Positions 37,041-52,614 of a stretch of 64,000 nucleotides of DNA are shown one piece after another; position 1 is the first letter of the stretch, and each line of letters starts with the position of its first letter. The stretch spans positions 12,451 through 76,450 of the forward strand of contig JAGBPS010000024.1 in assembly GCA_017633255.1 (NCBI GenBank), read 5' to 3'. The position numbers and the translations under genes were made by a program. Source of the DNA: Bacteroidales bacterium. Lineage in GTDB: Bacteria; Bacteroidota; Bacteroidia; Bacteroidales; WCHB1-69. The notes beneath the pieces were generated by a model. It was not told the origin of the DNA and did no database searches. It saw only the letters and a program-made list of their open reading frames with translations.

Positions 37041-40000
37041 ATGAAAAGAATCACGCTTATCGTTTCACTTTTTTTTCTATGCAATATGGTAACTTTTGCA
37101 CAACAAAGTCCCAAGGATATCCAACGGCAGCTGAAACTGTATGAAAAACAAATGCAGCAGTATGACAACGCCTTTGATACCATTTACCTGTCTATCAATC
37201 AGCAGATTGAACAGCAGAAGAGCAACCCCGGCAACGTGGCGATCTGGCAAAGCTGTATGGCCCAGCTGCTGTCGACTTACTATCAGCAGAACCGCTGGCG
37301 AATTATGGATCGCACCGCCCTCTCCGACGAAGAGGCCAATGCCGTTGATTTCAACACCTGGGACGCGCAACGCTTCGCAAAGGAAATCATCAAACATTAT
37401 CTGCTTTCTATCGAGAACAAAGAAGCACTCAGCAAAATTCCCATCCGAGAGTACGCTGTTTTGCTGGATTCGGTGACTTCGGAAACCTATCGCCCCACTC
37501 TGTACGACTTTTTAGCCTTCCGTTTTTTGGATTTTCTGAAAGATGAAATCTATGAACTGCCGATACCCGAAGTTCCTTTTGATGTAAATGATGAGCGATA
37601 CTGGGCTGAACCTCAACAATTTGCCAACATTGACATTCCCGCTACGGACGAATTGTCTTTTTCCTATCTCACTCTTTACACCCTGCAAGAGTTGACCCTT
37701 TTGCACTTGAACGAACCTGACTGCAGAGCATTGTTAGACGCCACCTTGCGTCGTTTCGAGTATTTGGGCTCACACAGCACCTTGGACAATGCCTCGGATT
37801 TGCAATTGGCGGCACTCACCAGCATGGAAAAACAATATCAAGGCAAAGAAGGATATGAAATGGTCACTAACGCTTTGGGTAATTTCTATCAGAAAAGAGG
37901 CAGTCAATACGATAAAAACACCCATCCAGAGTACAAAAACGACTATATAATCGCTATTGACTGGTTCAACAAAACCATTGCGGCAGCACCGAAATCCATA
38001 GAAGCCCGTAATGCCAAAAATGACATCAAAGAAATCAAAAGCTCTGAAGTGAAATTCAGCAGCAACAAAATCATTCCCGCCAACCAAGCCAACCTCATCA
38101 CTTTCTCCTATAAAAATTGTGAAAACCTGTATTTCCGTGTTGTTTCTTGCACAAAAGAAGACTTTGAACTGAAAAGAATTTCGGATAACAAAAAATTTTA
38201 TGCCTGGCTGATACAACAGAAAGAAATCTATGACACCGAACTCAACGCTCCCAACGAAAAAGACTATCGCGGCGTGAGTGGACATTTTCTGCTACCCTCA
38301 TTAGATGCAGGCTTTTATGTACTATTAGCTTCCGATGCCGCCTTCACCAATGAGAATAACAAAGGTTACTCCTTTTCCGCCTTGCAAGTGACTAATATTG
38401 ACGCACAATATCGTCAAAACGGCAAAAAACTGGAGTTTTTCGTGTTCGACCGCACCACAGGACAGCCCCTCAAAGGAGCGGAAGTTAAAGTTTCCCTTTA
38501 TCCAAATTACAATGCCAGCAAAGCTTCCAAAAGCATTCTACTCAACTGCGATGCCGATGGAAAATGTTCCTGTGAAATTACAGATAATGCTTATACACTA
38601 AGGGCCTCAGCCTCTTGGCAACAGGATAAATACCAGATTATCGAACACCAGTATTGGGGCAGATATCATGATGACCCAAAGGTCAATATTTCTGAAAAAG
38701 CCTATACATTCACTGACCGAAGCATATACAGACCCGGACAAACGGTCTATTTCAAGACGATTTTGGTAGAAACAACAAGCGTAGAGAACTTTATTCTTCA
38801 GCAAAAAACAGACAATGGCCAAAATTTTACCGTTGAATTATATGATGCCAACCATCAAAAAGTTGCTGAACAACAACTTACTTCAAATGAATATGGTTCG
38901 GCATCAGGAAGTTTTGTTTTGCCTAACCAAGGATTGACAGGGAGCTTTCATCTTCAGATTAAATTGGAATCAAAATATTTAGACAACCATTATTTCTCGG
39001 TAGAAGAATACAAGCGCCCCACCTTCGAAATCACCTTGGACCAACCTACCGAAGAGTTCAAAATCGGGCAAAATGTAAGCGTGGACGGTCATGTGAAAGC
39101 TTACGCTGGCTATGGTATCGGCGGGGCAAACGTAAAATATCATGTGGTACGCAAGGCCTCCTTCCCCTGGTGGCGCTGGTGGTGGTGGCAACCCACGGGA
39201 AAATCCCAGGAAATAGCCCATGGCGAGACAACCAGCGACAATGAGGGCAATTTCCACATCGATTTCATTGCCCAGCCCGACTTGGAGTCACAACGCTACA
39301 ACCCGCTCTACACCTACGAAATCAGTGTGGATGTGACCGACATCACAGGCGAAACCCACAGCGGCTCCACCCGAGTCTTGGTGAGCAAAATCGGACTGCT
39401 GATCAATGCGGAATTCCCCGAAAGCATTGCCCTGAACGGGAAAAACCAGTTCCCCGTAAAAATCACCAACTTGGCTGGTGAGACCCAAAAAGGCACAATA
39501 CATTACCGCATCGAAGCCTTGCAAACTCCTGAAAATTACAAATACAGTTGCTCGGAAGCCAATTATTATCTGTCTGATTCTATCCAGATGATTCAAAAAC
39601 TGCATTATCTGGACTTCCAAAACGAGACTCAGAAGAGCAATTGGAAAGTCCTAAAAACTGTTAAACATGGCGATTTTGTGACCGATGGCCAAAATCCTTT
39701 CATCATTCAGGATATGAAAAATCTTCAGGAAGCTTATTACAAAATCAGTTTAAGCACCTACGATAAAGACAATAATCAGATCCAAGAAGAGTATTATGTA
39801 TTGATTTATGACGAAAAAAGTAAAAAATGCGCGAATTACGAAGCTATTTGGCTGACAACATCTGACAAAAACACCATAGAAGTTGGAGAAACCATTCATT
39901 TCACCTTGGGAAGCTACCTAAAAAACGCCATGGTACTATGCGAAATCGTCTCTAATGATGAATTAGTGGAGTCAAAATGGGTGAAACTCAATCAAGGCAA

Positions 40001-42971
40001 AGCCGATTTCAGTTATACTGTGACCGAAAAAGACCTTGGCAAAGTGGTTGTCCATGCCTTCGTCACGCAAAACAATAAACAATATGAAAAAAACTTAAAT
40101 TTCAATATTCCCTTTAGTCACAAAAAAATCGACTTTGATTTTCTGACTTTCCGTGACAAGACTCTGCCGGGCAGTCTGGAACAATATCAGATAAGACTGA
40201 AAGATAAAAATGGTGACAAGGTGGCGGCGGAATTGCTTTGCTCCATGTATGACGCTTCCTTAGACGCATTAGCTTCTCCAAACTCTTGGATTTCAAGTAT
40301 TTTCAATAGCAGCAAACCTTCTTACAACTATTCTTTCCGGCTCACTTCAAACAATGGAAACAGCTATTACCGGAATTTTCAGAAAACCTCCTATGATTTT
40401 ATCAGCCGGAACTATCCGCAGCTGTTATGGGAAATAAATAGCTGGCGTAGAAACCGCCTGATGATGAGTAAAGCCGCTGGCGCCTATACCACCAATGGTG
40501 TGGAGGTAAGCATGGAAATGGATTTGGCTGCTGACTTTGATGAAGCAGAAGAAGTTGTGTTAAATACTGTAGCTGACAATATCAAGGTCAACACTGATTT
40601 AAATCTTGATGAAAATCTGGAAAAAGGAACAGAATCTACAGACAATCAAATCCGCACCAATTTCAACGAAACCGCTTTCTTCTTCCCGCATCTGCAAACG
40701 GACAAAGAGGGCAATGTGCTGGTATCCTTCACCATACCCGAATCACTCACCCGCTGGAAACTGCAAGGTTTTGCCCATAACAACGAGCTGATGAGCGGCT
40801 ATTTCGAAAAATTTGTACAGACCCAAAAACCGCTGATGGTGGTGCCCAATATGCCGAGATTCCTGAGAGAAGGCGACCTGGTAGTTTTGTCCGCCAAAGT
40901 GGTCAACATGGGCGAGGAACAACAAAGCGGACAGGTAAAACTGACTTTGACCAATCCTTTCAACGGGGAAAAATTAGACTTGACCAACGGCATCTCTGCC
41001 CAGAGTTTCACCGTTGAGGCAGGACAAAGCAAGGAAGTGCACTTCACCCTGACGGTTCCCAAAGACTTGGGTGCGGTGACTTACCGCATAGAAGCGCAAA
41101 ATGACCAGAGTCCCGCGTATGCCGACGGGGAGGAAGCCACCCTGCCCATTCTCACCAACCGCATTCTGGTGACCGAGAGCCTGCCACTTCATATTTCAGG
41201 AAAAGGAAGCAAAACATTTACTTTCAACAAATTGAAAAACAGTTTCAGCATCGCCAACTCCACATTGAGCACCCAATCCTATACCCTGGAATTCACTCCC
41301 AATCCCATCTGGTATGCCATTCAGGCACTGCCCTATCTGATGGAATATCCTCACGAATGCAACGAGCAGGTTTTCAGCCGTTTGTATGCCAACACTTTGG
41401 CGGCTCACCTCGTCAATTCGCATCCACGCATCAAGACTGTTTTCGACAGCTGGCTGAATGAATCACCCAACGCTTTCTGCTCGCAGTTGGAAAAGAATCA
41501 GGAGCTGAAATCCGTCATTTTGGAGGAAACCCCCTGGGTGTTGGATGCCCAGAACGAGTCGATGCGGAAACAGAACATCGCCCTGCTGTTCGACCTGCAC
41601 CGCATGGCCAAAGAGAACAAGGCCGCCGTGACCAAATTGGAGAAAGCCCAGAACAATGACGGAGGCTGGTCGTGGTTCGGCAGCCATGAGAGCAGTCGTT
41701 ACATCACGCAACATATTGTAGCCGGCTGCGGTCATTTGCAAGTGCTTGGCGTTCAGAATCCTATGAGCGACCAAGTCATCAGGAAAGCGGTTAACTTCAT
41801 CGACAACAAAGCCCGTGAAATCTACGACAAGTGGTACAGAGGCAAAAAAGCAGACTATGATATGACAGACATCCACTACTTGTACGCCCGCAGTTTCTTC
41901 CTGAAACAGAAAGTCAGCACCACCAACAGCGAAGCCTACAATTATTATTATGCCAATCTGAAAAAGAACTGGAAAAAACAATCCATTTACACCCAGGCCA
42001 TGACGGCTTTGATCTGTTATCGCAATGGCGATACCCAGCTGGCCCAGGAAATTGTGGCGAACATCAAATCGAGAGCACAATATTCAGAAGAAATGGGCAT
42101 GTTCTGGAAGAAAGAAGGCTACGGCTACTTCTGGTACGAAGCCCCCATTGAGCGGCAAGCCCTGCTGATTGAGGCATTCAACACCATCACCAAGGACCAG
42201 AAATCTGTGGAACAGATGCAACTGTGGCTGCTCAAACAAAAACAGACGCAAAACTGGCCCACCACCAAGTCCACCACGGAAGCTGTATACGCCCTGTTGC
42301 TCAACAACACACAACTGGAGAACACCAACGGGGTGAAACTGACCATGGGTGACTGGAGCTACACCGAGGGCGACAAGAGCATGCAGGCCGAGGCCGGCAC
42401 CGGCTATATCAAAAAAGCATGGAAAGGCAGCGAAGTGACGGAAGACATGGCCACCATAAAAATTGACAAAAGCAGCAACGGTCCCGCATGGGGAGGTTTG
42501 TACTGGCAGTATCTGGAAAATCTGGACAAAGTTTCCCACAGCGATGACCAGAACTTCAGCATTCAAAAGAAACTCTACAAGGTGGAAATCGGAAACCGTG
42601 GCGAAGTGCTGGTGCCGATTACGGAAAATGCTCCTCTGAAAGTCGGTGACAAAGTGCGGGTGCGCACCGAAATCCGCTGTGACCGCGACATGGAATATGT
42701 CCACCTGAAAGACATGCGTGCCTCCGCTTTCGAGCCCGTGAATGTGCTTTCACAGTACAAACACCAGGATGGCCTGTGGTATTACGAGGCCACCGGCGAT
42801 GCCGCCACCAACTTCTTCATCGACTATCTGCCCAAGGGCACTTACGTGTTCGAATACACTCTGATTGCCACGATGGCAGGAACTTACAGCAACGGCATCA
42901 CCACCATCCAGTGCATGTACGCACCCGAATTCACCTCGCACAGCGAAGGTATTCAAGTTACGATTCAGTAA
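37041..42971 (+). CDS. Bacterial alpha-2-macroglobulin family protein (1976 aa) with intact CxEQ thioester motif
   Basis: Signal peptide and a very long MG-domain-type sequence. The thioester box YPHECNEQVFSRLYA has TGC AAC GAG CAG at 41358..41369 (in frame, Cys1440). A TED-like helical region follows. Confidence 0.85.
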   Translation: MKRITLIVSLFFLCNMVTFAQQSPKDIQRQLKLYEKQMQQYDNAFDTIYLSINQQIEQQKSNPGNVAIWQSCMAQLLSTYYQQNRWRIMDRTALSDEEANAVDFNTWDAQRFAKEIIKHYLLSIENKEALSKIPIREYAVLLDSVTSETYRPTLYDFLAFRFLDFLKDEIYELPIPEVPFDVNDERYWAEPQQFANIDIPATDELSFSYLTLYTLQELTLLHLNEPDCRALLDATLRRFEYLGSHSTLDNASDLQLAALTSMEKQYQGKEGYEMVTNALGNFYQKRGSQYDKNTHPEYKNDYIIAIDWFNKTIAAAPKSIEARNAKNDIKEIKSSEVKFSSNKIIPANQANLITFSYKNCENLYFRVVSCTKEDFELKRISDNKKFYAWLIQQKEIYDTELNAPNEKDYRGVSGHFLLPSLDAGFYVLLASDAAFTNENNKGYSFSALQVTNIDAQYRQNGKKLEFFVFDRTTGQPLKGAEVKVSLYPNYNASKASKSILLNCDADGKCSCEITDNAYTLRASASWQQDKYQIIEHQYWGRYHDDPKVNISEKAYTFTDRSIYRPGQTVYFKTILVETTSVENFILQQKTDNGQNFTVELYDANHQKVAEQQLTSNEYGSASGSFVLPNQGLTGSFHLQIKLESKYLDNHYFSVEEYKRPTFEITLDQPTEEFKIGQNVSVDGHVKAYAGYGIGGANVKYHVVRKASFPWWRWWWWQPTGKSQEIAHGETTSDNEGNFHIDFIAQPDLESQRYNPLYTYEISVDVTDITGETHSGSTRVLVSKIGLLINAEFPESIALNGKNQFPVKITNLAGETQKGTIHYRIEALQTPENYKYSCSEANYYLSDSIQMIQKLHYLDFQNETQKSNWKVLKTVKHGDFVTDGQNPFIIQDMKNLQEAYYKISLSTYDKDNNQIQEEYYVLIYDEKSKKCANYEAIWLTTSDKNTIEVGETIHFTLGSYLKNAMVLCEIVSNDELVESKWVKLNQGKADFSYTVTEKDLGKVVVHAFVTQNNKQYEKNLNFNIPFSHKKIDFDFLTFRDKTLPGSLEQYQIRLKDKNGDKVAAELLCSMYDASLDALASPNSWISSIFNSSKPSYNYSFRLTSNNGNSYYRNFQKTSYDFISRNYPQLLWEINSWRRNRLMMSKAAGAYTTNGVEVSMEMDLAADFDEAEEVVLNTVADNIKVNTDLNLDENLEKGTESTDNQIRTNFNETAFFFPHLQTDKEGNVLVSFTIPESLTRWKLQGFAHNNELMSGYFEKFVQTQKPLMVVPNMPRFLREGDLVVLSAKVVNMGEEQQSGQVKLTLTNPFNGEKLDLTNGISAQSFTVEAGQSKEVHFTLTVPKDLGAVTYRIEAQNDQSPAYADGEEATLPILTNRILVTESLPLHISGKGSKTFTFNKLKNSFSIANSTLSTQSYTLEFTPNPIWYAIQALPYLMEYPHECNEQVFSRLYANTLAAHLVNSHPRIKTVFDSWLNESPNAFCSQLEKNQELKSVILEETPWVLDAQNESMRKQNIALLFDLHRMAKENKAAVTKLEKAQNNDGGWSWFGSHESSRYITQHIVAGCGHLQVLGVQNPMSDQVIRKAVNFIDNKAREIYDKWYRGKKADYDMTDIHYLYARSFFLKQKVSTTNSEAYNYYYANLKKNWKKQSIYTQAMTALICYRNGDTQLAQEIVANIKSRAQYSEEMGMFWKKEGYGYFWYEAPIERQALLIEAFNTITKDQKSVEQMQLWLLKQKQTQNWPTTKSTTEAVYALLLNNTQLENTNGVKLTMGDWSYTEGDKSMQAEAGTGYIKKAWKGSEVTEDMATIKIDKSSNGPAWGGLYWQYLENLDKVSHSDDQNFSIQKKLYKVEIGNRGEVLVPITENAPLKVGDKVRVRTEIRCDRDMEYVHLKDMRASAFEPVNVLSQYKHQDGLWYYEATGDAATNFFIDYLPKGTYVFEYTLIATMAGTYSNGITTIQCMYAPEFTSHSEGIQVTIQ

Positions 42972-44974: not shown

Positions 44975-44982
44975 TTGTTTTG

Positions 44983-45057
44983 CGGTCCGGACGAGACTCG
45001 AACTCGCGACCTCCTGCGTGACAGGCAGGCATTCTAACCAAACTGAACTACCGAACC
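44983..45057 (-). tRNA. tRNA-Asp (anticodon GTC)
   Basis: The reverse complement reads GGTTCGGTAGTTCAGTTTGGTTAGAATGCCTGCCTGTCACGCAGGAGGTCGCGAGTTCGAGTCTCGTCCGGACCG. It has a 7-bp acceptor stem, anticodon stem CCTGC/GCAGG with loop CTGTCAC, and T-arm GTTCGAGTC. CCA is not encoded. Confidence 0.95.
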
Positions 45058-45084: not shown

Positions 45085-45690
45085 CAACTTTTTTTAATGC
45101 AAAAACATTATGATGTAATTTTTTCTTCTAAATTTTATAACATTCTTATTTTTAGCTATTTATATTAATCTGATTATTTTCTGATTAGTCAAAACATTTC
45201 ACAAAAACAGCTTATGTTCATGGTTTTTTCGGAAAAATTCAGAATAATTCCACTTTTTTGCAATATTTCTGCCCTGATGATGACACCTACCTGCCGCGAA
45301 AGGCACGAGCCCAAACAGCCTGATTGGAACGTGCTGGATATGTACAGGGTAAGAAGAAGGTATGAAGAGGGTAGGCTAAAGGGTGCTTCCGACACATGTA
45401 AATAATAATCGAAAAGTATACCACTGTAATAATGCAAAAGTATACCATTCGAGCAGATTGTACTTTCCCCTTTTGCAAGCCTTGCAAAAATCTGAAACAC
45501 AATATTCTTTGCTGTATCTTTGTGGCAGATAAACGATTTTTTCAAATCATTCATTTTCTTATTTGTATACTAAATGATTTGTATATATTTTCCCTTTCGT
45601 ATAATATAAAAACGAACAGAACAAATACTCTTTTTTGTATCTTTGCATGTCGTAAATAAAACAAAAACAGATCCGCAAATTTAATATTCC

Positions 45691-45698
45691 TACTTTTG
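45691..45698 (+). promoter_or_regulatory. -7 promoter box TACTTTTG for the island operon (further boxes at 45515..45522 and 45638..45645)
   Basis: TAnnTTTG match 25 nt upstream of the ATG at 45723. The tracked TTG start at 45696 lies inside this box. Confidence 0.5.
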
Positions 45699-45722
45699 CA
45701 TAGTCAACGAAATATTTTCCTC

Positions 45723-46787
45723 ATGGCAACCTGGCAGAAAATAAAGATACAACGCGAGAATGGTGAGCTTGCTGAAGCGCAAGCGCCAGTAATCGTATCG
45801 GCAAGTCGTAGCACAGACATTCCTGCGTTCTATGCCGACTGGTTCTTCCATCGTTTGAAGGTGGGTTATTCAGCGTGGACCAACCCTTTCAACGGAGTGA
45901 AGAGTTTCGTTTCGTACGAGAAATGCCGATTTATCGTGTTTTGGTCGAAGAATCCCGAACCGTTACTGTTGCATCTTGACGAGCTGAATGAACAAGGTAT
46001 CGGCTGCTATATCCAATATACTCTGAATGATTATGTCTCTGAAGGTTTGGAGAAAAATGTTCCAGCTTTAGAAAAGCGTATCGACACTTTCAAGCAACTT
46101 GTGGACAAATTTGGCAAAGGTCGTGTTATATGGCGTTTCGACCCTCTGATTCTGACAGACAAGATTAGTTTGGATGATTTGTTGCATAAGGTAGAAAACA
46201 TCGGTGATCAACTCCAGGGTTACACCGAGAAACTTGTATTCAGTTATGCCGATATAGCCGCCTATCGGAAGGTGAAATCTAATCTTGATAAAAACCATGT
46301 AAGCTATACGGAATGGACTACTAACCAGATGGAGGAATTTGCTAAAGAACTATCGAAACTCAACCAAAAATGGAACTATCAGCTGGCAACCTGTGGCGAG
46401 AAGATTGACATAGAGCGATATGGAATTCATCACAATCGCTGTGTGGACGATGATTTAATGATACGATTGGCCTATAAAGACAAGGCTTTGATGGATTTCC
46501 TCGGAGTAGAGATAAAAACAGTTGAAAACTCATTGTTTGGGGCAGAACCGATTCCCGCCAATGCCATCATGCTTAATGATACTCAATTCGCTATCAAGAA
46601 AAAAAACAATCAGGACAAAGGCCAGCGACAGTTTTGTGACTGTATGGTGAGCAAGGACATCGGTGAGTACAACACCTGTCCGCACCTGTGCGAGTATTGC
46701 TATGCCAATGTGAGCAAAGAAAATGCGACAAAGAATTATAAACAACATGAAATGAACCCATTGGGGGAAACTATAACTGGGAAATGA
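45723..46787 (+). CDS. DUF1848-family protein with C-terminal radical-SAM-like CX3CX2C cysteine cluster
   Basis: 354 aa from MATWQKIKIQ. The C-terminus reads QFCDCMVSKDIGEYNTCPHLCEYCYAN (C-P-H-L-C-E-Y-C). The overall pattern (SASRSTDIPAFYADWF..., RFDPLI) fits DUF1848 as I remember it. Confidence 0.7.
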   Translation: MATWQKIKIQRENGELAEAQAPVIVSASRSTDIPAFYADWFFHRLKVGYSAWTNPFNGVKSFVSYEKCRFIVFWSKNPEPLLLHLDELNEQGIGCYIQYTLNDYVSEGLEKNVPALEKRIDTFKQLVDKFGKGRVIWRFDPLILTDKISLDDLLHKVENIGDQLQGYTEKLVFSYADIAAYRKVKSNLDKNHVSYTEWTTNQMEEFAKELSKLNQKWNYQLATCGEKIDIERYGIHHNRCVDDDLMIRLAYKDKALMDFLGVEIKTVENSLFGAEPIPANAIMLNDTQFAIKKKNNQDKGQRQFCDCMVSKDIGEYNTCPHLCEYCYANVSKENATKNYKQHEMNPLGETITGK

Positions 46788-46788
46788 T

Positions 46789-48480
46789 ATGGTTATCGAA
46801 CAAAACACCAACTACGCTTACAAACTAAAGCATATAGACCGCCCGACTTTTGAGGCCGTAAGGGACTTGTCCATTGAATTCTATCGCAGTTTGCCTCAGG
46901 AGTTACAGGACGAATTGTTTGAGACCTTAAACCGTGGCGTTGATATCTTAGATAGCGAACCACAGCTGACGACTTACATGTTCTCATACGGAAAGATGCA
47001 TAAGGCCAAATTGGAATATGCTTTTGACAATCTGACAGAAGGTTTTCTTTTGCAAGATGAAATAAACATCATTGACTATGGCTGCGGGCAGGCCATCGGC
47101 ACGATGTGCTATGCGGATTTTCTTCGTAATAACGGATATACGCAACAGATTAAGACCATTACATTAATTGAACCTTCTGAAATAAGCCTGAAACGGGCTG
47201 CACTTCACATTTCAGCATTCTTCCCTAATGCAGAAATTAAGACCGTGAACAAAACTTTTGATGAGTTAAACAAAGATGACATCTATTATGAAGAAGACAT
47301 TCCTACGCTGCATATTCTTTCCAATGTTTTAGATATTTTGGATTTCGATATTAATAAGTTTTCAAAATTGGTAAAAAGCAGTTTGAACGGATTTAACCAA
47401 TTTGTATGTGTAGGGCCTTTTTTTAATGATTCCCAAAAAGATGATCGAATGGTTGTATTTCGATCACTTAGAAACGAAGATGAATATTTCAACAAGATTC
47501 TAGACAAATTCGAATTAACCCCAGAAAAAGCATGGACAGCACAAATACTCATTTTCTCAGTTGGAGAAATAGCCAAAACTAAAGTTCCTATTACAGTAAC
47601 AAACGAGGAGATTGAAAATGACATAGAAGATAAATGTGGTGTATATAGCAAAGATGGTCAAAAATTGCTAAAGTGTACAGACTCACATATGGGTACATAT
47701 ACAATAAAAAAAGGCACAAAGGTGATATGTAAGAATGCTTTTGAAGGTTGTTTGTTCAGTCAAATAATCATACCCGATTCAGTCGTAAAAATTGAATGGC
47801 AAGCTTTTTTGGCATGTGAATTTTTGCAAACAATCACCATACCCAACTCTGTTACAAGTATCGATTATAATGCATTTGGTTTATGTGAATCCTTGCAACG
47901 AATCAACATTCCGGATTCGGTTTCTTTTTTGGGACCATCAACTTTTCATCGATGCATCTCTTTACAACAAGTCAAAATTTCCAATTCGTTAACATGTATA
48001 GACTACATGACTTTTTGTGAATGCACTTCTTTAAATCAAGTCCTCATACCAAATTCAACCACAATTTTAGGTGATCATGTATTTTCAAATTGCAAATCCT
48101 TGAAACAAATAATAATTCCCAACTTGGTAACATATATAGGGATGGGTGCTTTTTCAAACTGCACATCTCTAGAGCACATTACTCTTTCCAATTCATTACA
48201 TAACATTGGACCTTTCGCTTTTGAAAAATGCCAATCTTTGAAAACAATTGCTTGCCCTGACTCAGTTAAGCACATATATGCCGGAGCATTTTCCGAGTGT
48301 GTAAACTTACAACAAATCATTATTTCTGATTCGGCAACTGAGATTGGTGACGAGATTTATTATGAAAATGTTTTTAATAATTGTATGTCTTTACGACAGA
48401 TTATCATTCCCAAAGGAAGTACGGAGAAATTTAGGGAAATGCTTGATAAAGAATTGTGGGATAAACTAATAGAGGAATAG
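46789..48480 (+). CDS. Cytoplasmic fusion protein: N-terminal class I SAM-methyltransferase-like domain + C-terminal BspA-type leucine-rich repeats
   Basis: 563 aa with no signal peptide. It has Rossmann motif I IIDYGCGQAIGT, an acidic beta-2 end TLIEPSE, and LSNVLD. From about residue 283 (47635..48433) there are ~10 units of ~23 aa of the form I.IP.SV..I...AF..C.SL... The ATG lies 1 nt after the DUF1848 stop. Confidence 0.7.
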   Translation: MVIEQNTNYAYKLKHIDRPTFEAVRDLSIEFYRSLPQELQDELFETLNRGVDILDSEPQLTTYMFSYGKMHKAKLEYAFDNLTEGFLLQDEINIIDYGCGQAIGTMCYADFLRNNGYTQQIKTITLIEPSEISLKRAALHISAFFPNAEIKTVNKTFDELNKDDIYYEEDIPTLHILSNVLDILDFDINKFSKLVKSSLNGFNQFVCVGPFFNDSQKDDRMVVFRSLRNEDEYFNKILDKFELTPEKAWTAQILIFSVGEIAKTKVPITVTNEEIENDIEDKCGVYSKDGQKLLKCTDSHMGTYTIKKGTKVICKNAFEGCLFSQIIIPDSVVKIEWQAFLACEFLQTITIPNSVTSIDYNAFGLCESLQRINIPDSVSFLGPSTFHRCISLQQVKISNSLTCIDYMTFCECTSLNQVLIPNSTTILGDHVFSNCKSLKQIIIPNLVTYIGMGAFSNCTSLEHITLSNSLHNIGPFAFEKCQSLKTIACPDSVKHIYAGAFSECVNLQQIIISDSATEIGDEIYYENVFNNCMSLRQIIIPKGSTEKFREMLDKELWDKLIEE

Positions 48481-48528
48481 TGCAAATAGATTTTTTAATA
48501 TTTTTATGATAATCAGAACACATAAAAC

Positions 48529-49806
48529 ATGAAAATAAAAAAGTTAATAATCAACAACTTTCGAGCATTTAAGCATGCAGAAATAGATTTTGATGATTTT
48601 AGTTGTATTATTGGCAAAAACGACACGGGCAAATCAACAATCTTGGCAGCATTAGAATGGTTTTTTAATTCTAACAAGGAATTAGACGAAAACGATTTTG
48701 CAGCAGCTAGTTTTGATTGGAGTGAGTGCGAACATCCTGCATTTCATGATGAAATAGCAGGTGAAACATTTCAAGGAGAGACTGTTAAAGAGTTTATTTA
48801 TGATGGTTTTTGCATATCAGTTGATGTGTATTTCAGTGACGCAAACCTTCCAAATAGGACAGAAGAATCTGATTTCATCTTCAACCATGACTTTGTGTTA
48901 AAAGATGGTAATATCTGTATAAGTAAATACATGTATCACCCGTATAAAGATATAAATCATCCTTCTATTGGAAAACAGATGGGATATCGCATGAAAAATT
49001 GTTTTTTTGAAAAAATGCAAAAACCATTTTCCGATTGTACTATTGAAGAATTGAAAACAGTATATAATGAGATTAGGAACAACGCTGATGATTTATGCAA
49101 AAAATTATATCATTTAGAGGAAGAACGTCAAAATAAAAAAAATAGAGGTGTAGGGACATTGGCTATTAATACCGAAATACGAGATGAAGTATTAAGAATA
49201 AAAAGACTTATATGTTCTGAATTATATAATCACTACAGTAACAAAGGTGAAAAGACTTGTGAAAAATGGATGCCTTTTGATAATATAGATAGCATTGAAT
49301 TTCATTTCGGTTTTGATTTACCTCAATTTATATTATATACATCAAAAACGCCAACAAACGATTATCTGAACAAGTTATTTACACCATATAATGCCATCGG
49401 ATTATACAAGTCTATTGAAAAAGCCAAAGTACACACAACAGAAAAGCTTTCTGAATTCCTAAATTTAAATGGCCTGAATGAAAATATACATATTAAAGAA
49501 AATGAAAAAATAGACTTGTTTACAAAAGACAGTTTGATATTCAAACATAATGACTTGCCATTGAACATTCCTCTCAAAAACAGAGGGGAGGGTTTTCAGC
49601 TAAAGATAAAAAATGCTGTATTTAGGTTGCTTACAGAAACTCGGACAAGAAACCAAATCAATATCATTTTTGCTTTTGAAGAACCCGAAACACATTTGCA
49701 TCCGTCTGCTCAAATTGAAATGTATCAAACACTAAAGGCACTATCAGAAAATATTAATTATCAGGTGATTATTACAACACATTCCCCTTATATTGTTAAA
49801 AATTAG
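48529..49806 (+). pseudogene. ABC/AAA_15-type ATPase (OLD/PrrC/RecF-like), reading frame terminates 7 codons after the H-loop; probably continues in 49800..50273 after a -1 shift
   Basis: Walker A GKNDTGKST, signature-like NRGEGFQ, Walker B IIFAFEEPETHLHP, H-loop ITTHSPYIVKN-stop. The stop lies just after an A5 run (49798..49802). Confidence 0.6.
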
Positions 49807-49820
49807 CTCAAAACGACATA

Positions 49821-50273
49821 GTGCCTATTGTAGTAAAACAAGAAGCAGCCCAAGAATCAAAAATAAGCAAACTTGACGAACGTGTTTTGCCATACATTTC
49901 AATGAACGAAATCAATTATATAGCTTTTGAAGAGCCGTCGATAGAGTATCACATTGAATTGTATGGTTATATGCAAAACAAGTTGGACAAAACTGTTCGG
50001 GAATTAGACGATTGGCTAAAAGGGTGCGGAATCATCAATGGTGATAACCTATATGACTGGTATGATACGAGAAATTTAGAAAAAACAGAAGACAAAAAAA
50101 CTTTACCTTATTGTGTTCGTAATAATATTGACCATCCATTGGTTGATGATGCCTGCGATTCAAGAAAACATAATGCTTATGTGAATAACAGTCAATTCAA
50201 CAATAGTGATTTGATTAGAAAAAGCATTGAAATTATGCGGGAAGCGATAATCAACAATGTAGAATTTATATGA
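49821..50273 (+). CDS. 150-aa ORF: probable C-terminal continuation of the ATPase, carrying a HEPN-like Rx4H motif
   Basis: This frame is open from 49800 (KLAQNDIVPIVVKQE...). The motif CVRNNIDHP has CGT at 50118..50120 and CAT at 50133..50135. There is no independent ATG until codon 28. Confidence 0.45.
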   Translation: MPIVVKQEAAQESKISKLDERVLPYISMNEINYIAFEEPSIEYHIELYGYMQNKLDKTVRELDDWLKGCGIINGDNLYDWYDTRNLEKTEDKKTLPYCVRNNIDHPLVDDACDSRKHNAYVNNSQFNNSDLIRKSIEIMREAIINNVEFI

Positions 50274-50313
50274 GAGAACATTGAAACCATGCAAATAATA
50301 AAAACACAACAAG

Positions 50314-50571
50314 ATGAACGATAACGAAAAAGCATTAATGCATCACTTTGAGATGATTGCACATTCGCAAGGAACGATGCAATTTCTATACAATTTGTTT
50401 GGCGGGGGCTTTGTTGCCAAACAACAAGCAAAAGAAACAATTGATTTTTGCATTGCAAAAATGAAACGGGATATTGAAAGCAATCCAAATTTGACACGAG
50501 AGCAAAAAGATCATGAGATTTCAATTAGAGAATGTTGGTTTAATGCAATGAAAAATTCATTGGGATTGTAA
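50314..50571 (+). CDS. Hypothetical small helical protein (85 aa), last gene of the island operon
   Basis: ORF only, co-directional, 40 nt after the previous stop, and followed by a hairpin. No recognisable motif. Confidence 0.4.
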   Translation: MNDNEKALMHHFEMIAHSQGTMQFLYNLFGGGFVAKQQAKETIDFCIAKMKRDIESNPNLTREQKDHEISIRECWFNAMKNSLGL

Positions 50572-50576
50572 CTTTA

Positions 50577-50619
50577 GCATAATAATCCCGTATGAAATTA
50601 ACGCACACTATTATTATGC
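50577..50619 (+). terminator. Hairpin at the end of the island operon
   Basis: GCATAATAAT (50577..50586) is the exact reverse complement of ATTATTATGC (50610..50619), with a 23-nt loop. It starts 6 nt after the stop at 50571. Confidence 0.5.
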
Positions 50620-50743
50620 ATGAATTAATTAGCAGAAAAGTAATAGCAAATTTTTGCTTCCTTAATTTAAGCGTAAATCTCGGCAACTGATAGTTGTCAA
50701 TATGAGGAAATAGATTAAAATAATATCGAAAGAGAAGACAACC

Positions 50744-50824
50744 ATGCTAATCAAACAAAATACCAACCACATATACAAGCTAAAATATATAGAAAAACCG
50801 ACCTTTGACATGTTCGAAGTATGA
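50744..50824 (+). pseudogene. 27-codon relic of a second methyltransferase-LRR-type gene (5' end only)
   Basis: Translates MLIKQNTNHIYKLKYIEKPTFDMFEV-stop, compared with MVIEQNTNYAYKLKHIDRPTFEAVRD at 46789. That is 14 identities in 26 residues plus conservative changes. Confidence 0.65.
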
Positions 50825-50863
50825 CCATTCCTCAAATAGTTAGTGTATTTAAAAATTTGTGCG

Positions 50864-50871
50864 TAACTTTG
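50864..50871 (+). promoter_or_regulatory. -7 promoter box TAACTTTG
   Basis: TAnnTTTG match 9 nt upstream of the ATG at 50880. The tracked start at 50859 lies upstream of the box. Confidence 0.5.
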
Positions 50872-50879
50872 CAAACGAT

Positions 50880-52358
50880 ATGAACAAAACAACAATCATA
50901 GAATCATTGCTCAAGGGTGAGCATATCACACTGGAAGCAAAACGGGCCGAGAATGATTTACCCAGATCGGTTTGGGAGACCTATTCGGCATTCGCCAATA
51001 CACACGGCGGATTGATTTTGCTTGGTGTTATTGAAAATCTAAAGGAGAAAGACATTAACAAGCGTTTCACCATCACTGGCGTTGATGATGCCGAGAAAAT
51101 ACGCAAAGACTTCTGGAATATTGTCAATAATGCAGAGAAAGTGAACATCAATCTACTTAAGGACGAGGATGTTGAAACGATTGACATGGATGGTAAAACC
51201 GTAGTAGCTATTAATGTGCCAAGGGCTGACTACACGGTACGCCCTGTATATATCAATAACAATCCTCTTCGGGGAACTTTCAAGCGTAACCACGAGGGCG
51301 ACTATCACTGTGCTGAACACGAAGTAAGGATGATGATGCGCGATGCCAACGAGGCTGGTAACGATGGCATGTTACTGGAATATTACACGATGGATGATAT
51401 TGATATTCCAACTCTGGAGCGCTACAGAAACCATTTCAGCAGCAGACACCCTGATCATGTGTTTAACAGTCTTGAACATAAGTCATTTCTAAAAGAACTG
51501 GGCGGCTATCATGTTGACAGAAAAGACCAAAGCGAATGTTTAACCATGGCTGGTTTATTGATGTTCGGCAAAGGCCATCCCATTCGTGAACGCTTTGAGA
51601 ACCTGCGATTAGATTATATTGACAAATCTGGGTTGATTGGTGATCAGCGATACAGCGACCGCCTAACCTACGACGGCACATGGGAAAACAATCTCTTCAA
51701 TTTTGTTACAATGGTATTGCCCAAGTTGCTGAGAGATTTACCGAGACCATTCAAGATGGATGGTATAGTGCGTGAAGACGACACTCCTCAACACAAGGCT
51801 GTTCGTGAAGCTCTGACAAATGCCATTATCCACGCAGACCTGATGATAAACGGGGTTCTGAAAGTGGAGAAATATGACGATAAACTTGTACTCACAAACC
51901 CCGGATTACTGAAGCTCCCCGTAGAACAAATCTATGCAGGCGACGAATCGAGAGCAAGAAACCAGCACATGCAAACCATGTTCCGCATGATAGGATTCGG
52001 GGAAAACTTGGGATCTGGTTTTCCCTTAATATTGAGTGCCTGGAATGAGAAACACTGGCTAAAACCGGAGTTAATTGAACAGCCAGAGCTAATGCAGGTA
52101 AAACTCATTCTGACAATTGAGGCAAAAGATGTCACAAAAGATGTCACAAAAGATGTCACAAAAGAACTATCTGAAAGACAGGTGCTTATATTAGAATTGA
52201 TAGCAGAAAATGCTATGGCGACAATATCAGAAATGTCACAAAAGACAGGGGTTGCACCTAGAACCATTATACGAGATATTGAGCATTTGCAATCCTTGGG
52301 CATTCTTGTTCGAATTGGTGGCCGCAAGGAAGGTCATTGGGAAATTAGCAATTTATAG
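50880..52358 (+). CDS. AlbA_2 (Schlafen-like) DNA-binding domain / HATPase_c_4-like / C-terminal winged-HTH protein
   Basis: 492 aa from MNKTTIIESLLKGEHITLEAKRAENDLP...AFANTHGGLILLGV (AlbA_2 pattern). The C-terminal wHTH reads LSERQVLILELIAENAMATISEMSQKTGVAPRTIIRDIEHLQSLGIL. Confidence 0.7.
   Translation: MNKTTIIESLLKGEHITLEAKRAENDLPRSVWETYSAFANTHGGLILLGVIENLKEKDINKRFTITGVDDAEKIRKDFWNIVNNAEKVNINLLKDEDVETIDMDGKTVVAINVPRADYTVRPVYINNNPLRGTFKRNHEGDYHCAEHEVRMMMRDANEAGNDGMLLEYYTMDDIDIPTLERYRNHFSSRHPDHVFNSLEHKSFLKELGGYHVDRKDQSECLTMAGLLMFGKGHPIRERFENLRLDYIDKSGLIGDQRYSDRLTYDGTWENNLFNFVTMVLPKLLRDLPRPFKMDGIVREDDTPQHKAVREALTNAIIHADLMINGVLKVEKYDDKLVLTNPGLLKLPVEQIYAGDESRARNQHMQTMFRMIGFGENLGSGFPLILSAWNEKHWLKPELIEQPELMQVKLILTIEAKDVTKDVTKDVTKELSERQVLILELIAENAMATISEMSQKTGVAPRTIIRDIEHLQSLGILVRIGGRKEGHWEISNL
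52125..52160. repeat. In-frame 12-nt tandem repeat AAAGATGTCACA x3 (KDVT x3)
   Basis: Read directly. A fourth partial copy, ATGTCACAAAAGA, follows about 65 nt downstream. Confidence 0.9.
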
Positions 52359-52614
52359 CATATGACAATGCCCACCATCCTCCTCATAATCAGCATATAC
52401 CTTGTCCTCAACCTCGCCTTGTTGGCTTTTAGGTGCACTGAAGTATAAGGAATAATATTACCCCGTTGGAGGCTGTGCGAACATGATTCCATGAGGTACG
52501 GCACCGCCGTGAGATTTATGCCACTACCTCGCCCTTTTTTCCGCTCCTTATCCATCACAGGGAATAAGTGTGAAGTACTATTTTATTCAGTGTAATATAT
52601 AAAAGAAATTTTTG

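Follow-up and report, generated by a model that had tools for sequence, protein, structure and literature searches.

The stretch of DNA analysed here, a 64,000-nucleotide (nt) window of contig JAGBPS010000024.1 from a Bacteroidales bacterium (assembly GCA_017633255.1), carries a gene at 46789..48480 (+ strand; 563 amino acids (aa) from an ATG start) whose product joins a methyltransferase-like N-terminal head, through a linker, to an array of BspA-type leucine-rich repeats (LRRs) of the LRR_5 family. The gene begins 1 nt past the stop codon (TGA 46785-46787) of a DUF1848 gene (45723..46787, + strand; 354 aa from the ATG, MATWQK; Pfam DUF1848 at 2.5e-92), a spacing which suggests translational coupling. 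The target gene belongs to a large, hitherto undescribed protein family, and the literature searched contained no description of a head-repeat/DUF1848 pair. We propose that the pair is a two-gene cytoplasmic module dependent on S-adenosylmethionine (SAM), acquired horizontally and serving most likely in conflict with phages or mobile elements; we hold this proposal tentatively, at somewhat short of an even chance.

The N-terminal head has the predicted fold of a SAM-dependent methyltransferase

A reading of this DNA from its letters alone (the sequence-only reading) had recognized a Rossmann head with a methyltransferase motif I, and structure prediction bore this out. An AlphaFold2 model of the whole protein, built on an alignment of 66 homologues, had a mean predicted local distance difference test score (pLDDT) of 88.8 and was confident over both domains. 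The head, or N-terminal domain (46789..47574, + strand; aa 1-262), had a pLDDT of ~90 over aa 1-260 and was modelled as a helical cap (aa 1-88) followed by a class I SAM-methyltransferase Rossmann-like fold with seven strands in the expected order, and the linker that follows it (47575..47643, + strand; aa 263-285) was modelled with low confidence (pLDDT ~56, and <50 at aa 263-265). When the head was compared with the PDB by Foldseek, the best match was CmoA (4iwn; E=7.8e-5, probability 1.00), with further matches to EgtD, METTL6, Bud23, and HEN1 (probability 1.00, E 8e-5 to 6e-4) and with MnmM also among the closest folds; sequence identity to these matches was just 10-15%. What the head has in common with CmoA, EgtD, METTL6, and Bud23 is the seven-stranded Rossmann fold, a GxGxG motif I, and an acidic residue after beta2, and its helical N-terminal cap resembles that of small-molecule and tRNA SAM enzymes.

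The SAM-binding signature of the head, consisting of motif I and the acidic residue after beta2, was intact. Motif I, IIDYGCGQAIGT, lies at nt 47068-47103 (+ strand; aa 94-105), and within it D96-Y-G98-C99-G100 was invariant across the head family while Q101 was invariant or nearly so. The acidic residue at the end of beta2, E128, was >90% conserved and sits in a conserved stretch, E128-P-S130. In heads down to ~25% identity, three further sets of residues were invariant or nearly so: K155, F157, and D158 after beta3; H175, N179, and D182 after beta4; and H71, R136, and W249. The combination of an intact SAM signature with a set of conserved polar residues, candidates for an active site, argues for an enzyme and not a decayed domain, which speaks to the doubt in the sequence-only reading as to whether the methyltransferase fold is complete. 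PADLOC 2.0 held no model for the head besides a weak match of the target head to C3a159, a type III CRISPR accessory methyltransferase (1.5e-3). By its predicted fold and motifs, we place the head in the class I SAM-methyltransferase superfamily, outside any curated methyltransferase family, and it constitutes a distinct, unannotated domain family.

DUF1848 is the only conserved partner of the head gene

We counted the pairing of the two genes in 80 GTDB species-level loci. DUF1848 was present in the locus of the head gene in 66 of the 80: directly upstream of it in 39, upstream but separated by a single gene in 13, at another position in 12, and read through into one 898-aa open reading frame (ORF) in 2, which share one sequence (L053 = L054, where L-numbers denote individual loci or contigs; junction ...ETITGK-I-MLIEQ...). 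No DUF1848 was found in 9 loci, and in 5 the upstream DNA was too short to tell. DUF1848 also lay 5' of the head gene in 7/7 metagenome contexts looked up. The obligate adjacency, the 1-nt spacing, and the read-through fusion lead us to propose that the head and DUF1848 act together. A conserved third gene was considered and rejected, because the outer neighbours of the pair are heterogeneous, and for the same reason the core consists of two genes. The sequence-only reading had assumed a defence operon and did not mention the upstream DUF1848 gene, which is the only conserved partner.

Nine DUF1848 sequences, compared down to 32% identity, had seven invariant cysteines. Three of these, C319-PHL-C323-E-Y-C326 (nt 46677-46700), fit the radical-SAM pattern CxxxCx(aromatic)C, placed C-terminally and not N-terminally, and the other four lie outside the CxxxCxYC motif. 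DUF1848 may be an Fe-S enzyme capable of radical chemistry.

The head-repeat fusion is real, and the protein is predicted to be cytoplasmic

We were concerned that the fusion could be an assembly chimera or a gene-calling artefact, a risk which the sequence-only reading had also raised, since these are metagenome-type data and LRR repeats can mis-assemble. The region 45723..50273 was identical in an independent metagenome assembly (L093) and had a single 1-nt difference in another (L092); a third independent assembly (L094) matched the target gene exactly over its first 474 nt. Because the same sequence recurs in three independent assemblies, we conclude that the head-LRR fusion is real and no chimera. 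The architecture also appeared in dozens of species and was modelled confidently, and we give the artefact explanation almost no credence. An upstream in-frame extension, likewise raised in the sequence-only reading, found no support: an in-frame stop lies 5 codons 5' of the ATG, homologues start at the same residue, and the N terminus is conserved from residue 1. In a search of a viral structure library, the head and the LRR array were matched separately, with no single protein spanning both domains.

As the sequence-only reading had stated, no signal peptide was evident; the top 15-aa Kyte-Doolittle mean within the first 70 aa was 0.13. No transmembrane segment was found over the full length of the protein (top 19-aa Kyte-Doolittle mean 1.2), no lipobox was found in its hydrophilic N terminus, and the C-terminal domain of the type IX secretion system (Por_Secre_tail) was absent from its Pfam matches. 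By these features the target protein is predicted to be cytoplasmic. This bears on whether it could be a BspA-type surface adhesin exported by a nonclassical route, with the head incidental. LRR_5, Fib_succ_major, WG_beta_rep, Flg_new, and Lcl_C domains are typical of surface proteins of Bacteroidota and Fibrobacter; all five are among the modules of the head family, and the closest structures to the LRR array are annotated as cell-surface proteins. We nevertheless consider an adhesin very improbable, given the missing export signals, the N terminus conserved from its first residue, the occurrence of the same head on helicases and on Sel1/TPR repeats, and a partner which is Cys-rich and presumably an Fe-S enzyme, belonging in the cytoplasm.

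The C-terminal module is exchanged within the head family

The sequence-only reading had counted about ten BspA-type repeats at 47635..48433, and we likewise found ten 23-aa repeats of the type I.IP.SV..I...AF..C.SL (aa ~303-540; counted by eye from the sequence), which together with a C-terminal helical cap make up the LRR_5 array (47644..48477, + strand). Pfam LRR_5 (PF13306) matched the target protein at E=1e-57, with 193.9 bits against a cut-off of 27.7 bits, and Foldseek matched the C-terminal half to the BspA-type LRR structures 4gt6 (9e-12) and 4fs7 (2e-11). The array thus has the same repeat type and fold as the BspA-type surface proteins (4gt6, 4fs7, 4fd0), but those are secreted or surface-anchored, whereas the window protein lacks an export signal and has an enzyme-like, presumably cytoplasmic head.

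We surveyed 67 representatives of the head family for the module joined to the head. LRR_5 was found in 27, Sel1 in 21, and TPR in 6, and rarer modules were WG_beta_rep (5), the lectin-like Fib_succ_major (5) and Lcl_C (2), Flg_new (1), and S1 (1). The fusion had been thought unusual; a search for it in other genomes instead found the architecture in dozens of species, with DUF1848 as neighbour, and head-LRR_5 is the commonest architecture of a family with >1300 clusters. In a minority of the family the head is placed C-terminally. Divergent heads (35-37% identity) were fused either to NERD/UvrD superfamily 1 (SF1) helicases, in L024, L064, and L098, or to DpdF-like DEAD-box superfamily 2 (SF2) helicases of 1500-1900 aa in L087 and L091; a helicase-type head at 35% identity over 199 aa kept the same motifs. 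DUF1848 adjoined the helicase-head genes in L024, L064, L098, and L087, and none was found in the L091 locus. The proteins listed in a homologue search with a helicase-type head were all <=465 aa, so that long reverse transcriptase (RT) or helicase fusions could not show up there.

Rates of divergence differed along the pair. Mean identity to the window was 71% for DUF1848 vs 54% for the head, with DUF1848 the higher in 61/61 loci, and within the same 41 loci it was 40% for the LRR array vs 59% for the head. The C-terminal module is the fastest-evolving part.

We propose that the conserved head binds SAM and that, with the putative Fe-S enzyme DUF1848, it would carry out a SAM-dependent modification, probably of nucleic acid, while the exchangeable C-terminal module would set the place or time of that modification. 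The ten BspA-type LRRs may bind a protein ligand, e.g., a phage protein; the Sel1, TPR, and lectin-like versions may also bind protein, as trigger or as recruiter; and the SF1/SF2 helicases or the S1 domain in paralogues may bind nucleic acid directly. That the chemistry is aimed at nucleic acid is suggested by the helicase and S1 fusions, by the RTs of the UG25 group, which combine a methylase with DUF1848 (see below), and by the presence of DUF1848 near AlkB and endonucleases. The head-helicase fusions suggest that the chemistry acts on nucleic acid, something that the analogy with eukaryotic nucleotide-binding LRR (NLR) receptors, drawn in the sequence-only reading, does not predict.

Two further arrangements were observed around the exchangeable modules. 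In seven loci, LRR-only ORFs of ~250-450 aa lay directly 3' of the head-LRR gene on the same strand (L020 9154..10206; L021 9605..10672; L035 11646..12416; L057 4404..5378; L060 4212..6666; L070 9688..10797; L076 9658..10752); these may represent a reserve of C-terminal cassettes for switching by recombination, or else parts of a single longer gene broken by frameshifts. A few kb 3' of the main pair, a second divergent head paralogue with the reversed order, in which the head is C-terminal to 7-13 Sel1 repeats, was seen in L020 (11434..14451) and L025 (11024..13285).

The pair lies in an accessory island and is patchily distributed

The pair sits in a low-GC accessory island of 7.4 kb (45167..52546), which also holds a split ATPase gene and a Schlafen-like gene. 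The GC content of the island was 0.32-0.41 vs 0.45-0.51 in the flanks, and the island is bounded by tRNA-Asp and a GHMP-kinase gene on one side and a pyruvate:ferredoxin oxidoreductase (PFOR) gene on the other. Nine contigs from close relatives (L102-L109, L111) carried an empty site: their alignment to the window ran up to 45166 and resumed at 52547, and they had 0.8-2.5 kb at the site with zero island genes. Identity of these relatives to the window was 84-98% in the GHMP kinase, 96-99% in PFOR, and 95-100% in arginase. The tRNA-Asp(GTC) gene (44982..45057, - strand) adjoins the left edge of the island and was present at the empty sites too. We found no integrase or other mobility gene among the island genes, and a repeat scan of the island gave no flanking direct repeats marking integration. 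The lack of an integrase and the orientation of the tRNA-Asp, whose 5' side faces the island, give no support to classical integration at a tRNA 3' end.

An exhaustive search placed the head family at 1364 clusters at 50% identity, 630 of them below 1e-30. A word-indexed homologue search with the head gave 416 matches, in which the proteins listed were all <=492 aa and the 563-aa protein of the window was not among them. The head occurred in 172 GTDB species-level loci, nearly all from rumen or gut Bacteroidales. Some metagenome-assembled genomes (MAGs) had two copies (L037/L038, on one contig, and L026/L039), and the genomic position of the pair varied between species. Outside cellular genomes the head was rare: 2 of 2.9 million viral contigs searched carried it, and tblastn of heads vs plasmids and phages yielded 2 plasmid records and 1 phage record (unannotated). 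On one plasmid of Moraxella osloensis (AP031476.1), a stand-alone head of 280 aa with 35% identity (L100 6932..7774) lies ~0.8 kb upstream of ssb and ~3.2 kb downstream of a viperin-family radical SAM gene, with no DUF1848 nearby.

These data bear on whether the pair is itself a selfish or counter-defence module, either a toxin/antidote-like pair in which the head modifies and DUF1848 reverses or completes the modification, or a means of anti-restriction of incoming DNA. Two tightly coupled genes with unequal conservation would fit such a module, as would the island setting, the DarT, HicA, and Phd-type neighbours elsewhere, and the presence of the pair on a few viral contigs. The stand-alone head next to ssb on the Moraxella plasmid would fit it as well; plasmids keep anti-defence genes in regions such as the one around ssb. 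However, the scarcity of the head on viral contigs, plasmids, and phages and the lack of an integrase or mobility gene in the island stand against this explanation, and variable protein-binding repeats are no feature of known toxin-antitoxin systems or anti-restriction methylases. We regard a selfish module as improbable.

Relation to known systems

The closest described genetic module is UG25, itself uncharacterized. UG25 RTs have an N-terminal methylase and an associated DUF1848 gene, UG35 has a UvrD-like helicase instead, and class 1 UG/Abi RTs carry alpha-Rep repeats (Mestre et al. 2022, PMC9226505). The window pair resembles UG25 in having a methylase-like N-terminal domain on a larger protein which ends in repeats, with a DUF1848 gene alongside, and the PADLOC profile RTasDUF1848 ("RT-associated DUF1848") matched the window DUF1848 at 1e-40. 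Its likeness to UG35 lies in the UvrD-like helicase, as helicase fusions of the head occur in the window family too. It differs from UG25 in that the window protein has no RT domain (no RVT_1 or UG RT match). The PADLOC profile RT_UG25 gave no match to the window protein and only weak matches in the head family, in 2 of 67 members (best 1.7e-4), along with a weak match to the reversed-order head of L025 (0.004, profile positions 24-186). We rate the pair as a UG25-like methylase/DUF1848 module in which the RT has been replaced by ligand-binding repeats.

A second comparison is with cytoplasmic sensors which combine a conserved enzymatic or nucleotide-binding head with variable C-terminal repeats that bind a phage protein, as do DSR2 and the Avs/NLR-like STAND proteins. 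DSR2 joins a SIR2 head to a C-terminal alpha-solenoid through which it binds the phage tail tube (PMC11850899). The window protein shares this layout, but its head has a SAM-methyltransferase fold and not a SIR2 or STAND NTPase, and gene order in the window family calls for a separate, putative Fe-S enzyme partner. We found no STAND or P-loop NTPase (NACHT, NB-ARC) in the target protein by Pfam, NCBIfam, or PADLOC. Membership in the NLR/STAND class was rejected, as there is no P-loop NTPase and the C-terminal repeat array is the one class feature present. The likeness to NLR and LRR immune receptors noted in the sequence-only reading accordingly survives in the pairing of an enzymatic head with variable repeats, and the resemblance is architectural only.

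Evidence for and against a role in conflict

We favour a role in conflict or defence because the pair is accessory, patchy, and fast-diversifying and because defence genes are nested within its operon. A YhcG/DUF1016 PD-(D/E)xK nuclease stood between DUF1848 and the head in 9 GTDB loci and in L001 and L005, and this inserted YhcG corresponds to the PADLOC candidate PDC-S02 (7e-149). In L032 an AbiP2 abortive-infection RT (1.7e-168) lay between the partners as a separate gene, and elsewhere the intervening gene encoded a Schlafen AlbA_2/HATPase_c_4 protein or an AAA_14/DUF4143 protein. GmrSD adjoined a DUF1848 + head-UvrD pair on a viral contig, and DarT, HicA, and WYL genes were near the pair in some metagenome contexts. 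This defence context is suggestive, and the pair does not correspond to a recognized system.

The main alternative is that the pair forms an accessory module for modification or repair of nucleic acid or protein, with no immune role, whose repeats, helicases, and S1 domains are adaptors to cellular substrates. DUF1848 is much broader than the head, with at least 8000 matches, among them archaea, cyanobacteria, and Firmicutes, and JGI labels some of these proteins "DNA repair photolyase". It often occurs alone: DUF1848 genes with no head were found in Planktothrix, Roseburia, Parabacteroides, and Methanosphaera, where their neighbours encoded AlkB, a DNA/RNA endonuclease, or Sir2 together with a macrodomain protein. 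Company such as AlkB and an endonuclease would suit an enzyme of general repair or modification no less than an immune effector. DUF1848 was also present on 78 IMG/VR contigs (L114-L191), including phage-like contigs of 100-435 kb and giant-virus MAGs. The head gene was alongside in only ~7 of these 78, those nearest the Bacteroidales type, and the near-constant absence of the head suggests that viral DUF1848 has a self-sufficient function useful to viruses. The folds nearest to that of the head belong to enzymes that modify tRNA or rRNA or act on small molecules (CmoA, METTL6, Bud23, MnmM, EgtD). Finally, the first genes outside the pair in the 80 loci were heterogeneous and often housekeeping (MatE, GyrB, Fe-hydrogenase); the commonest outer-neighbour family, AAA_21/AAA_15, accounted for just 6-7/136, and no defence family dominated.

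Several of these observations weigh against a role in conflict, and other results do so as well. Neither Pfam nor NCBIfam had a methyltransferase model above threshold for the head of the target protein (aa 1-280), and a PDB sequence search with the head, as a single sequence and as a profile, gave no match; methyl transfer by the head is therefore not established. One head homologue matched Methyltransf_23 at 25.7 bits, under the 27-bit cut-off, and CmoA, the best structural match of the head, is itself not a methyltransferase. The AlphaFold2 model of DUF1848 had a moderate pLDDT of 66, with a TIM-barrel-like core and a poorly modelled Cys-rich C terminus, which we attribute to the homologues listed being all >=78% identical. 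Foldseek of this model vs the PDB gave no match at E<=1e-3, and the best radical-SAM match of this pLDDT 66 model, to Elp3 (8pty_C; E=0.067, probability 0.97), was weak. A sequence search of DUF1848 vs the PDB found nothing, and the Radical_SAM Pfam model had no match to the window DUF1848. The quicker divergence of the repeats is also expected under relaxed constraint alone, and the defence prediction for UG25 was inconclusive in the UG/Abi study (PMC9226505).

Three observations would be unexpected for a housekeeping adaptor, namely the swapping among at least eight unrelated binding modules, the absence of the pair from close relatives at its site together with multiple copies and differing sites, and the repeated insertion of defence genes between the two genes. 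For these reasons we consider a repair or modification module without an immune role possible but rather unlikely. Were it nonetheless correct, the domain swapping would still be an unusual route by which one enzyme pair is retargeted to many substrates.

The proposal of a role in conflict can be carried further, to a pattern-recognition class outside STAND. In such a class the SAM-binding head and a radical-SAM-like DUF1848 would form the effector unit; recombination would swap the LRR, Sel1, TPR, beta-propeller, or lectin-like modules and so keep pace with phage proteins; the helicase- or RT-fused paralogues (UG25/UG35-like) would sense nucleic acid; and the output would be a SAM-derived or radical modification new to immunity. 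We regard this extended version as doubtful, though it deserves consideration. An immune role for the pair would bring a new enzymatic chemistry, that of a SAM/Fe-S pair, into prokaryotic immunity and its sensor-plus-effector logic. It would also assign a function to DUF1848, an orphan family that is widespread and occurs in large phages and giant viruses too, and would account for the methylase and the DUF1848 of the UG25 RT systems, so far unexplained. Most of the head family comes from Bacteroidales of the rumen and gut, a group with few defence systems tested to date, and its swappable LRR, Sel1, and lectin-like modules would amount to a natural library of intracellular binders with defined partners.

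Other genes and features of the island and its flanks

Downstream of the pair, 48529..49806 (+ strand) encodes the N-terminal 425 aa of an AriA-/OLD-like ABC ATPase (Pfam AAA_15 4e-42; PADLOC AriA 1.3e-42), and a 150-aa ORF with no family match (49821..50273, + strand) corresponds to the C-terminal domain of this ATPase. The change of frame falls at ~49785-49800, in an A-run, and as the same split is present in the independent assemblies L092 and L093, it represents a real pseudogene or a slippage site. This ATPase resembles PARIS AriA, OLD, and Gabija GajA, its AAA_15 domain matching AriA over the full profile length, but it differs from PARIS, in which AriA is paired with AriB, a Toprim/DUF4435 nuclease: no AriB or Toprim, as partner or as domain, was recognized for the window ATPase, and the gene is frameshifted. 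An intact AAA_15 ATPase of ~580-670 aa (~580-600 aa in L013 and L014) lay directly 3' of the head gene in L013, L014, L049, L051, and L088, and with an AAA_15 ATPase 3' of the pair in ~6 of the 80 loci, it is an occasional third gene.

Next follows a gene for a protein with Schlafen AlbA_2, HATPase_c_4, and helix-turn-helix (HTH) domains (50880..52358, + strand), which is island cargo and no conserved partner of the pair. The 3' end of this Schlafen/AlbA_2-HTH gene contains, at 52123..52165, at least 3.5 copies of a perfect 12-nt tandem repeat, CAAAAGATGTCA. The protein has 492 aa in L092 but 488 in L093, and the 4-aa difference fits a copy-number polymorphism of the 12-nt repeat. A scan of the island for sigma-70 promoters and terminators gave nothing above shuffled expectation, the scan being ill-suited to Bacteroidota promoters.

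At the left edge of the island, a 121-aa ORF (45189..45554, - strand) had no Pfam match and was missing from the empty sites; a 21-nt near-tandem repeat (45403-45447) lies inside it. The site between tRNA-Asp/GHMP kinase and PFOR was variable, and in relatives it held mostly ~0.9-1.2 kb of non-coding-looking DNA. At the same site, L105 had a 278-aa ORF that looked KilA-N/ORF6N-like by eye, and L106/L107 had a 212-aa ORF whose N terminus resembles a signal peptide. In the conserved flank, just upstream of the arginase gene, 37041..42971 encodes a 1976-aa alpha-2-macroglobulin-like protein, for which MG2, A2M, and bMG10 domains were identified in the identical gene of L092/L093.

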